Origin: Octopus vulgaris
Taxonomy: Eukaryota
DNA length: 64,000 nt
Direction of reading: 5' to 3'
Assembly (NCBI GenBank): GCA_951406725.2
Contig: OX597827.1
Location: forward strand, 74,958,001 to 75,022,000
Below, piece by piece: positions 3,978-57,953 of the stretch (the stretch's first letter is position 1; each line of letters opens with the position of its first letter). The notes under the pieces were generated by a model. That model did not search any database. It was given only the letters and a program-made list of their open reading frames with translations, and was not told the DNA's origin. The translations under genes were made by a program, and so were the position numbers.

Positions 3978-4112
3978 TTTGCTGACAGTCGGAACCCATG
4001 CGTCCCATTGCACAGCCTCTAGGACATGCGCCATGAATCGGGTTGCAGGCGTCATTATTCATACAGTTACATCTTTTGGTGCAACGTAGTCCATATGTGC
4101 CTCCTTGGCAGA
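3978..4112 (-). CDS. EGF-like exon C1: [45 protein letters not shown]
   Basis: Minus strand tttgtttcacag|TCTGCCAAGG...TGTCAGCAAA|gtaagt; 135 nt, 8 Cys. Confidence 0.9.
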
Positions 4113-57800: not shown

Positions 57801-57953
57801 AAAGCAAACGTTATTAACCTTCTTTACAAGTGCCTGAAGTGAAACCAGGTGGACATCCATGTGGGCATATTCCAGTGACTCTGTCGCACACGTCCTTATC
57901 TCGACAGTTGCATTCCTCATTACAGCCAGAACCATACTTTCCAGGAGAACACT
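3978..57953 (-). CDS. Partial multi-exon gene: multiple EGF-like (laminin-EGF type) repeat protein, MEGF10/CED-1/SCARF-like ectodomain; 10 exons visible, both ends outside the window or not found
   Basis: Ten 132/135-nt exons with a polypyrimidine-AG acceptor and GT donor, all phase 1-1, no internal stops, each with 8 Cys in the pattern C-x2-G-x-[YF]-G-x2-C-x3-C-x-C-x4/5-C-x4-G-x-C-x2-G-C-x2-G-x5-C. Junction codons from A3 to C1 are all sense (GCA, TTC, CAG, GTC, CAG, GTA, TTC). That they form one transcript is inference. Confidence 0.8.
4578..6593 (-). mobile_element. Degenerate R4/Dong-like non-LTR retrotransposon, 5' part to RT core (paralogs 26676-28697, 42390-44414, 51936-52873)
   Basis: Frameshifted RT motifs [31 protein letters not shown], WIDYx[25 protein letters not shown]. 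Confidence 0.9.
6594..7103 (-). mobile_element. Remnant of a second R4/Dong-like element (3' end deleted in copies 1 and 4; paralog 52873-53382)
   Basis: [21 protein letters not shown]...HGKY...[18 protein letters not shown]. Confidence 0.9.
7128..8160 (-). mobile_element. Internally deleted R4/Dong-like element next to (TAA)n (paralogs 45818-46860, 53408-54440; truncated at 30072-30225)
   Basis: N-terminal-like peptide on the minus strand; 5' sequence (gtgacaccatcactag) similar to that of the 4578-6593 element; abuts a TAA repeat. Confidence 0.55.
8290..8505 (+). mobile_element. tRNA-derived SINE, present in copies 1 and 4 (54567-54785), absent in copy 3
   Basis: GGCGGCTAGCTGGTAGAGTCGTTAG A-box region, GAGTTCAAATTCC B-box, GATCGACTTTGCCTTTC core. 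Confidence 0.85.
8790..10300 (+). mobile_element. Degenerate, internally deleted R4/Dong-like LINE with restriction-like endonuclease (paralogs 46965-48690, 55068-56580)
   Basis: [47 protein letters not shown]...[20 protein letters not shown]. Confidence 0.85.
10590..10721 (-). CDS. EGF-like exon B1: [44 protein letters not shown]
   Basis: ttatttttttcag|TATGCCCT...CAAGAAT|gtgagt; 132 nt; lies within ORF-track entry 10546..10746. Confidence 0.9.
11541..11675 (-). CDS. EGF-like exon A1: [45 protein letters not shown]
   Basis: ttgttcttttcag|AGTGTTCT...AAAGAAG|gttaat; 135 nt; the ORF track reports a different frame here. Confidence 0.88.
13590..14030. mobile_element. Two old degenerate SINE remnants in opposite orientations
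   Basis: aaaaggatgaaaggaaaaattgac (minus) and gaagttcaaattctgttgac...tttccatccttcc (plus) resemble the SINE core. Confidence 0.45.
14163..14232. repeat. (GTA)n/(GCA)n microsatellite (also 33728-33787, 60441-60519)
   Basis: Direct reading. Confidence 0.95.
14445..16250 (+). mobile_element. 5'-truncated CR1-group LINE (RT), three single-site frameshifts, (ATT)n tail
   Basis: [77 protein letters not shown]. Confidence 0.95.
16253..16378. repeat. (ATT)n followed by (AAT)n, a self-complementary microsatellite pair (also 35801-35866, 62543-62654)
   Basis: Direct reading. Confidence 0.95.
16530..18460 (+). mobile_element. Degenerate L1/Tx1-like LINE 5' part: ORF1 and start of APE endonuclease (paralogs ~36030-37710, ~62810-64000)
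   Basis: ORF1-like ...[49 protein letters not shown] matches the APE N-terminal motifs (NVRGL, xET). Confidence 0.65.
18460..18960 (-). mobile_element. L1/Tx1-like APE endonuclease fragment, opposite orientation (paralog 37710-38200)
   Basis: [12 protein letters not shown]...[10 protein letters not shown]...FRLVALYIP; the copy-2 paralog reads [31 protein letters not shown]. Confidence 0.7.
19072..19168. repeat. (CT)n(AT)n microsatellite (paralog 38324-38433 has different lengths)
   Basis: Direct reading. Confidence 0.95.
19422..19950 (-). mobile_element. Solo LTR (529 bp) with 4-bp TSD
   Basis: TGTA...TACA ends; GTTG duplicated at 19418-19421 and 19951-19954; single GTTG at the empty site 38681-38684; AATAAA on the minus strand near 19550. 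Confidence 0.85.
19951..21460 (-). mobile_element. Degenerate L1/Tx1-like ORF1 region (paralog 38685-40190)
   Basis: Same peptide as 1-950 plus a low-complexity N/T/K-rich tail; oriented toward the minus-strand APE fragment. Confidence 0.5.
22556..25500 (+). mobile_element. Two head-to-tail Helitron-like copies (22556-24029 and 24030-25500)
   Basis: Exact junction ...GATACTGCTAG|TCTCTTATTATAAAAGG; each carries the piggyBac fragment. Confidence 0.85.
26076..26210 (-). CDS. EGF-like exon C2: [45 protein letters not shown]
   Basis: tttgttttacag|TCTGCGAA...CAGGAAC|gtaagt; 135 nt, 8 Cys. Confidence 0.9.
28730..30040 (-). mobile_element. 5'-truncated R4/Dong-like element with Zn knuckle and RLE, inserted in (TAA)n (paralog 44470-45775)
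   Basis: [57 protein letters not shown] repeats on both sides. Confidence 0.92.
30704..30838 (-). CDS. EGF-like exon A2 (identical to A1 by eye)
   Basis: Same splice sites and sequence as 11541-11675. Confidence 0.88.
33994..35800 (+). mobile_element. CR1-group LINE, copy 2 (stops and frameshifts)
   Basis: Same RT motifs, with in-frame TAA/TGA and small deletions. Confidence 0.95.
41791..41925 (-). CDS. EGF-like exon C3: [45 protein letters not shown]
   Basis: tttgttttacag|TCTGCGAT...CAGGAAC|gtaagt; 135 nt; 3 nt different from C2. Confidence 0.9.
48983..49114 (-). CDS. EGF-like exon B3: [44 protein letters not shown]
   Basis: gggtttttttcag|CATGCCCT...CAAGCAT|gtgagt; 132 nt, 8 Cys. Confidence 0.9.
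49934..50068 (-). CDS. EGF-like exon A3: [45 protein letters not shown]
   Basis: ttgttcttttcag|AGTGTCCT...AAAGAAG|gttaat; 135 nt, 8 Cys. Confidence 0.88.
51836..51935. other. Assembly gap (100 N)
   Basis: Run of N; exactly 100 N usually marks a gap of unknown size. Confidence 1.
56868..56999 (-). CDS. EGF-like exon B4 (identical to B1)
   Basis: Same sequence and splice sites as 10590-10721. Confidence 0.8.
57819..57953 (-). CDS. EGF-like exon A4 (identical to A1)
   Basis: Same sequence and splice sites as 11541-11675. Confidence 0.8.

Follow-up and report, generated by a model that had tools for sequence, protein, structure and literature searches.

The stretch of DNA analysed here (the window) is 64,000 nucleotides long and corresponds to C14 74,958,001-75,022,000 in a genome of 2.8 Gb; a window-relative position plus 74,958,000 gives the position on C14. 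Using six-frame scanning and splice-site fitting, we recovered ten minus-strand exons with AG/GT ends, all of phase 1-1, 132 or 135 nt long and encoding eight cysteines each (1341 nt in total), in agreement with the original prediction. From right to left along the minus strand these are: a type 1 A exon (57819-57953) with its type 1 B exon (56868-56999); type 3 exons A (49934-50068), B (48983-49114) and C (41791-41925); a unit without B, which consists of a type 1 A exon (30704-30838) and a C exon near type 3 (26076-26210); and type 1 exons A (11541-11675), B (10590-10721) and C (3978-4112). Below an assembly gap, eight of these exons (50068 to 3978) join into 357 aa with 64 Cys and no stop, as had been foreseen for this contiguous part. 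The regular A-B-C unit of about 20 kb that had also been proposed is not borne out, given that the spacing is irregular and that unit A30838-C26210 lacks B.

In Pfam, each array exon gives weak matches to EGF_laminin or EGF_STAB1-2 (E 0.002-0.05), so that the expected EGF-type assignment is recovered, but below the curated cut-off for every single exon. An Octopus sinensis protein with these modules matches the EGF region of Tie2 (E 7e-11), and the nearest proteins to the window are labelled O. sinensis and O. vulgaris. The C-to-A introns contain other material as well. A LINE-type reverse-transcriptase ORF (RVT_1; 60457-62490, plus strand) lies in one of them and has relatives at 14350-16086 and 33901-35749; it is found in some units only, is open over 677 aa in one copy and has a 99.5% identical twin with two frameshifts. 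Stretches of the protein models P0001 and P0002 recur in the C-to-A intron of every unit and are probably annotation filler rather than exons.

The array extends beyond the window. In the 464 kb around it there are 30 A, B and C exons, from +135755 to -66687 (C14 75,093,755 to 74,891,313), spanning about 210 kb, and 28 of them are in frame. Identity at the scale of units is 93-98%, with the exception of one block. A 46-kb block at 5782-51835 recurs at 52062-98154, past the end of the window, with 99.5% identity, and the two copies are separated by a 100-N assembly gap (51836-51935), where the left contig stops at the duplicate's end and the right contig opens at the duplicate's beginning. Between the copies we count 69 substitutions (42 transitions and 27 transversions) and 86 indel events, an indel-to-substitution ratio of 1.25 as compared with 0.08-0.23 in six older pairs. 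Each copy also has 1-bp frameshifts missing from the other: they affect exons 77135 and 88250 in the right-hand copy and the LINE ORF in the left-hand one. On the strength of these sequence features, we consider it quite probable that the 46-kb repeat is a false duplication at the assembly gap. Because the block recurs on either side of the gap, A57953 and B56999 are probably second assembled copies of A11675 and B10721. The alternative is a real and very recent tandem duplication, in which case the stalk would have 30 exons, two of them broken. The 69 substitutions and the evident tendency of the array to duplicate speak in its favour, but both contig ends fall on the duplicate ends, indels are in excess and frameshifts are private to each copy, and we regard it as rather unlikely.

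If the repeat is indeed false and is collapsed, the real array would comprise 23 exons encoding 1027 aa, in which a higher-order repeat of nine exons (types 1, 2 and 3) occurs about twice, alongside one unit without B and a final cassette. It should be noted that the annotated orthologue of O. bimaculoides has one cassette, which supports the tandem expansion that had been predicted, although part of the apparent growth is probably an artefact of the assembly, which thus probably overstates the length of the array; in O. bimaculoides, collapse during assembly or annotation could itself account for there being just one cassette.

Evidence for splicing was obtained from four runs guessed to be RNA, which were aligned over 10400-11900, the loose ends of contigs being matched by eye to exon ends. 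Run X17 yields one C-to-A contig, and run X18 yields one C-A-B contig, one C-to-A contig and one B-to-C contig, the last being of type 3 (B exon at 48983-49114). The acceptor used by the spliced contigs is that of the A exon at 11541-11675, and C of the type found at 3978-4112 is joined by a contig to the next type-2 A exon, outside the window. Altogether, the C-A junction is present in three contigs and A-B and B-C in one each, from contigs that derive from one study, have a depth of 2-7 and mostly retain introns, and one of the X18 C-to-A junctions is supported by just 10 letters on the C side. Run X16 shows no splice junction over 10400-11900 and X20 yielded no contig; none of the contigs of the four runs joins A to C in the unit that lacks B. 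The C-A, A-B and B-C junctions, which had been named in advance as the ones to look for, therefore argue that the array is intragenic, and the C-A junctions, which cross unit borders, speak against the units being separate genes.

These same contigs bear on how the modules are used. Since every exon is of phase 1-1, any skipping would keep the frame, and this, together with the strong diversification of types described below, would suit a Dscam-like use of the modules as alternative cassettes (skippable or mutually exclusive), with a large number of isoforms in place of a single long stalk that is constitutive. However, all five junctions join types that are adjacent in the genome, and the O. 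sinensis model P0002 has six consecutive modules in a string. We thus find alternative cassettes improbable, and favour a constitutive stalk.

The remainder of the likely gene was mapped outside the window on the same strand. In order, the minus strand carries a signal peptide, three EGFs, a two-exon beta domain, an F5/8 fucolectin-like domain, the array, a last EGF, a transmembrane (TM) exon, a 3.8-kb Lys/Glu-rich repeat exon and the exons of the tyrosine-phosphatase (PTP) domains D1 and D2; the placement of the signal, TM and PTP exons is consistent with the original prediction, in which such exons were to be sought beyond the window. With the array there are 30 plus 4 single EGF exons, and, after collapsing, the model reads through from beta domain to TM as 1440 aa with no stop. 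The signal-peptide exon is at C14 75,181,103 and is identical in 20 of 20 residues to positions 1-20 of P0007; a de novo scan had given four candidate sites, among which the orthologue pointed to window-relative position 223103. In the 18.7 kb scanned after the last EGF there is one candidate TM exon, at -81845 to -81920 (C14 74,876,155), and it resembles the TM of P0007. The Lys-rich exon (C14 74,863,756-74,859,954), to which the TM exon joins in a compatible phase, lies between TM and PTP D1 and consists of 45-nt and 72-nt coding repeats rich in Lys, Glu, Pro and Arg. As assembled it is frameshifted, with 44- and 46-nt units among the 45-nt repeats and 1-bp breaks in A-runs. With it, the likely gene contains a repeat expansion on the intracellular side in addition to that of the stalk. 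The full set of PTP D1 and D2 exons follows downstream on the same strand, to C14 74,793,823.

In O. bimaculoides, the models P0007 and P0023 have the order signal-EGF-GBD-EGF-A-B-C-EGF-TM with single A, B and C modules, and every part is collinear here. The PTP part is annotated in that species as another protein, P0004, the split falling between the TM part and the PTP part; its accession number is near those of P0007 and P0023, and it maps downstream on the same strand in our genome. Public annotations therefore appear to split a likely single gene into several unrelated-looking models. No reads joining the array to lectin, TM or PTP exons are present among the spliced contigs of the 10400-11900 region, and a single transcript from lectin to PTP is what we infer from order, strand and collinearity. 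Taken together, the exons of the window are likely to be the spliced stalk modules of one octopus lectin-EGF receptor with two PTP domains that lack the catalytic Cys.

The head of this receptor is fucolectin-like: PF22633 and PF00754 are above cut-off in P0002, P0003 and P0023, and the corresponding exons map upstream of the array. A fold search also matches the lectin part to fucolectins, in a region where the model is of low confidence (AlphaFold of P0023: mean pLDDT 54.6, residues 1-238 below 50). The AlphaFold model gives no assignment for the first beta domain, for which the Atlas offers a tentative hint of a degenerate F5/8 fold. The fucose-binding motif of F-type lectins is given as HX24RXDX4(R/K) (PMC5712786). 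In the octopus head a His is found 24 residues before the Arg, but Thr stands in for Asp and the final spacer is 3 residues long. As the motif is incomplete, the ligand of the head may not be fucose.

Both PTP domains appear to be catalytically dead. Instead of the HCxxGxxR and WPD expected of an active domain, D1 has Gln-Ser in place of His-Cys in its P-loop and WPE as its WPD loop, and D2 is also without the catalytic Cys; all of this holds both here and in P0004. Identity to O. bimaculoides is 79-95% for most PTP exons, as compared with 52-79% for ectodomain exons. Among 150 PTP matches the Cys motif is present in 137; for 12 of the other 13, the pattern detects no P-loop at all. The adjacent paralogue retains His-Cys, while two others show, in alignments, the second half of the motif only.

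These paralogues belong to a cluster at C14 73.28-74.84 Mb, which contains at least eight PTP-bearing loci of the GBD/EGF receptor-PTP kind in both orientations. It is interrupted by several N gaps, and among its near-identical copies there may be false duplicates. The three paralogues examined have the order GBD-EGF-PTP, the GBD being followed by 4, 8 and 12 EGF exons, and a paralogue at C14 74,020,806-74,080,231 has at least 23 EGF exons in 60 kb, in two-exon cassettes, including one dead acceptor and one stop. Since this paralogue also has a large array of EGF exons, the length of the stalk alone is not unique. Elsewhere, two intronless ORFs of 1140 aa (L059:2795-6214, plus strand) and 922 aa (L060, minus strand) each end in a PTP domain; we take them to be FERM-PTPs (PTPN14/21-like).

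Comparisons of the exons with their surroundings, which omit the seven right-hand duplicate exons, show that the exons differ far more than the DNA around them. Mean divergence in exons versus 250-bp flanks is 0.142 versus 0.022 for A, 0.168 versus 0.028 for B and 0.150 versus 0.045 for C. Between types 1 and 2, whose type-2 exons show the largest contrast and sit just outside the window, there are 35/135 differences in A, 32/132 in B and 30/135 in C (22-26%), as opposed to 22, 28 and 34 per 1200 in the flanks (2-3%), with sharp borders (Fisher p 1e-22 to 6e-15). Likewise, the A-B intron (10722-11540 in the window, minus strand) differs by 1.2-3.9% in all 15 pairs of six units, whatever the exon type, whereas exons differ by 0-29%. 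The informative sites of this intron are mosaic, with variants shuffled across exon types: type-2 units share 26/32 informative sites in A and 15/27 in B versus 1/18 in the intron between them.

The changes in the exons are predominantly nonsynonymous. One pair of B exons differs by 31.3 nonsynonymous versus 1.7 synonymous changes, and within the window B10721 and B49114 differ by 16 nonsynonymous changes and 1 synonymous change. With one identical copy per class dropped and 6-7 short sequences left in each, omega (dN/dS) is 2.97 for A (p 0.02), 13.6 for B (p 4e-5) and 2.15 for C (p 0.03), A and C alone being nominally significant only; for concatenated exons it is 5.4 with three units, 3.7 with six (p 5e-7) and, when type 2 is omitted, 2.9 (p 0.001), all these values being fitted on trees although conversion, which violates tree models, has occurred. 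Meanwhile, the Cys codon columns are invariant (24/24), and type-2 modules are 47-59% identical to O. bimaculoides modules as compared with 64-75% for the other types. In the control array of the paralogue with at least 23 EGF exons, of which 13 were analysed, omega is 0.88 and 1.02, i.e. near 1, and exon divergence is about equal to that of the flanks.

Other sources of the exon divergence were considered. Edited RNA copied back into the genome is ruled out, as A>G accounts for 8 of 53 type-2-private changes. A base-composition artefact is rejected as well: the neutral N:S ratio is 2.5-3.9, codon models carry frequencies, and the types do not differ in exon GC. The intronless PTP ORFs on C25 and C9, tried as templates, are other, non-receptor-looking PTPs; that on C9 looks diverged and is possibly a retrocopy.

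The observed pattern suggests that selection diversifies and preserves the module types. At synonymous sites the types diverge by 0.16 (A), 0.06 (B) and 0.09 (C), which is more than the introns do (about 0.03), and thus the shielding of old types from conversion contributes to the contrast. Carried further, this would mean that purifying selection merely maintains types older than the intron clock, that conversion wipes out the differences between introns, and that the stalk is a spacer with no arms race. The mosaic intron sites fit such a scheme, as does the fact that same-type exons can be closer than their introns (1.5% and 0.8% versus 2.3% in the u2-u6 pair). On the other hand, nonsynonymous changes exceed synonymous ones (the B pair above, and omega of 2-14), also without type 2, type-2 modules are the ones least similar to O. 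bimaculoides, and a pure spacer would not resist conversion. We therefore judge purifying selection by itself to be a poor candidate, and retain diversifying selection with some shielding. The type-2 C module of P0002 from O. sinensis resembles a hybrid of the genome's two type-2 C copies (107311 and -15885), a hint of conversion or exchange within a type.

The dead PTP domains, the frameshift in the Lys-rich exon as assembled and the annotation of parts as separate genes might suggest that the array is decaying as a pseudogene, or that it consists of several small genes side by side, but this is highly implausible in view of the 28 of 30 exons in frame, the invariant Cys codons, the C-A junctions across unit borders and the conservation of most PTP exons with O. 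bimaculoides.

Overall, it is probable that the locus encodes one receptor whose stalk has grown by unequal crossing-over, whose modules are kept different by selection and whose tail is a dead PTP. Mechanistically, a single ancestral A-B-C cassette would have been multiplied by unequal crossing-over; gene conversion would homogenise introns across unit types, and the resulting near-identical introns could sustain further exchange between units, while selection would diversify and preserve module types on a fixed disulfide frame. Because exons diverge under selection while introns stay alike, the stalk modules would contact a partner that changes fast; the most plausible candidate is a surface molecule of a pathogen or of non-self origin. 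Strong diversifying selection on stalk modules inside one gene would also point to the stalk, and not to the lectin head alone, as a binding surface.

As for the tail, the missing catalytic Cys would, by analogy, make it a decoy or scaffold for substrates of the active paralogues next door, and it might tune their signalling by substrate competition or scaffolding. The analogy is with human PTPRU, also a receptor PTP with two pseudophosphatase domains, although the ectodomain of PTPRU differs from the one found here. PTPRU is doubly inactive, with a proposed role as a competitor of its active relatives for substrates, yet it retains the D1 Cys (PMC7320164), which is replaced by Ser in the octopus protein. 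A more far-reaching and tentative possibility is a single-gene recognition repertoire, i.e. an octopus-lineage decoy receptor in which EGF modules under positive selection form a string of variable make-up. In such a repertoire, conversion-homogenised introns would allow crossing-over to reshuffle the modules, perhaps with in-frame skips, and the active phosphatase paralogues of the same cluster would be paired with the receptor as an immune or self/non-self system; this, too, we put forward with reserve. A dead-phosphatase receptor beside active paralogues is a concrete candidate for cephalopod immunity.

The original prediction placed the gene near MEGF10/CED-1/Draper and SCARF1. The 8-Cys EGF modules are indeed alike, and searches by sequence and fold list Tie2 and SCARF1 among their matches, but the octopus gene differs from all of these in its fucolectin-like head and PTP tail. 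MEGF10, CED-1 and Draper have an N-terminal EMI domain and an NPxY/ITAM tail; in the orthologous ectodomain P0023, Pfam reports no EMI domain, F5/8 being the sole domain reported. The gene instead fits the mollusc GBD/MEGF receptor-PTP family. The Biomphalaria members, those of SudRes1 (PMC12297450) and of LG5R subgroup 1C (PMC13712769), are single-pass proteins with a galactose-binding/fucolectin-like domain, multiple EGFs and tandem PTPs, encoded by clustered paralogues; their EGF content varies, and an EGF is lost in a resistant snail. These snail counterparts sit in schistosome-resistance loci, with EGF-domain loss as a candidate cause. The likeness to the octopus gene, as reconstructed here from collinear exons, is in domain order and content. 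In contrast, the reconstructed gene has two PTP domains without catalytic Cys, a 3.8-kb Lys/Glu-rich exon before D1, about 27 EGF modules and a measured exon-restricted diversification. The family is already known; the most unusual traits of this member, both absent from the original prediction, are the two dead PTP domains and the exon-restricted diversification. Strict-phrase searches of the open literature, which are weak on absence, returned nothing on this gene, on a doubly dead family member or on an exon-intron contrast in cephalopods.

With regard to other repeat-bearing proteins, oyster bindin is likewise a molluscan recognition protein with positively selected tandem repeats of variable number; its repeats are F-lectin repeats of a sperm acrosomal protein (PMC5712786), whereas in the octopus it is the EGF modules in the stalk of a membrane receptor that are repeated. 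An octopus protein with 29 six-Cys EGFs, described in PMC10336842, is unrelated. The locus also offers a clean example of conversion versus selection at the resolution of single exons. A comparable pattern, in which introns are homogenised or conserved while selected exons diverge, is found in the red/green opsin and RHD/RHCE duplicates and in conotoxin genes, the conotoxins also having a fixed Cys framework; in those cases the diverging exons are in separate genes, whereas here the repeats lie inside one gene.
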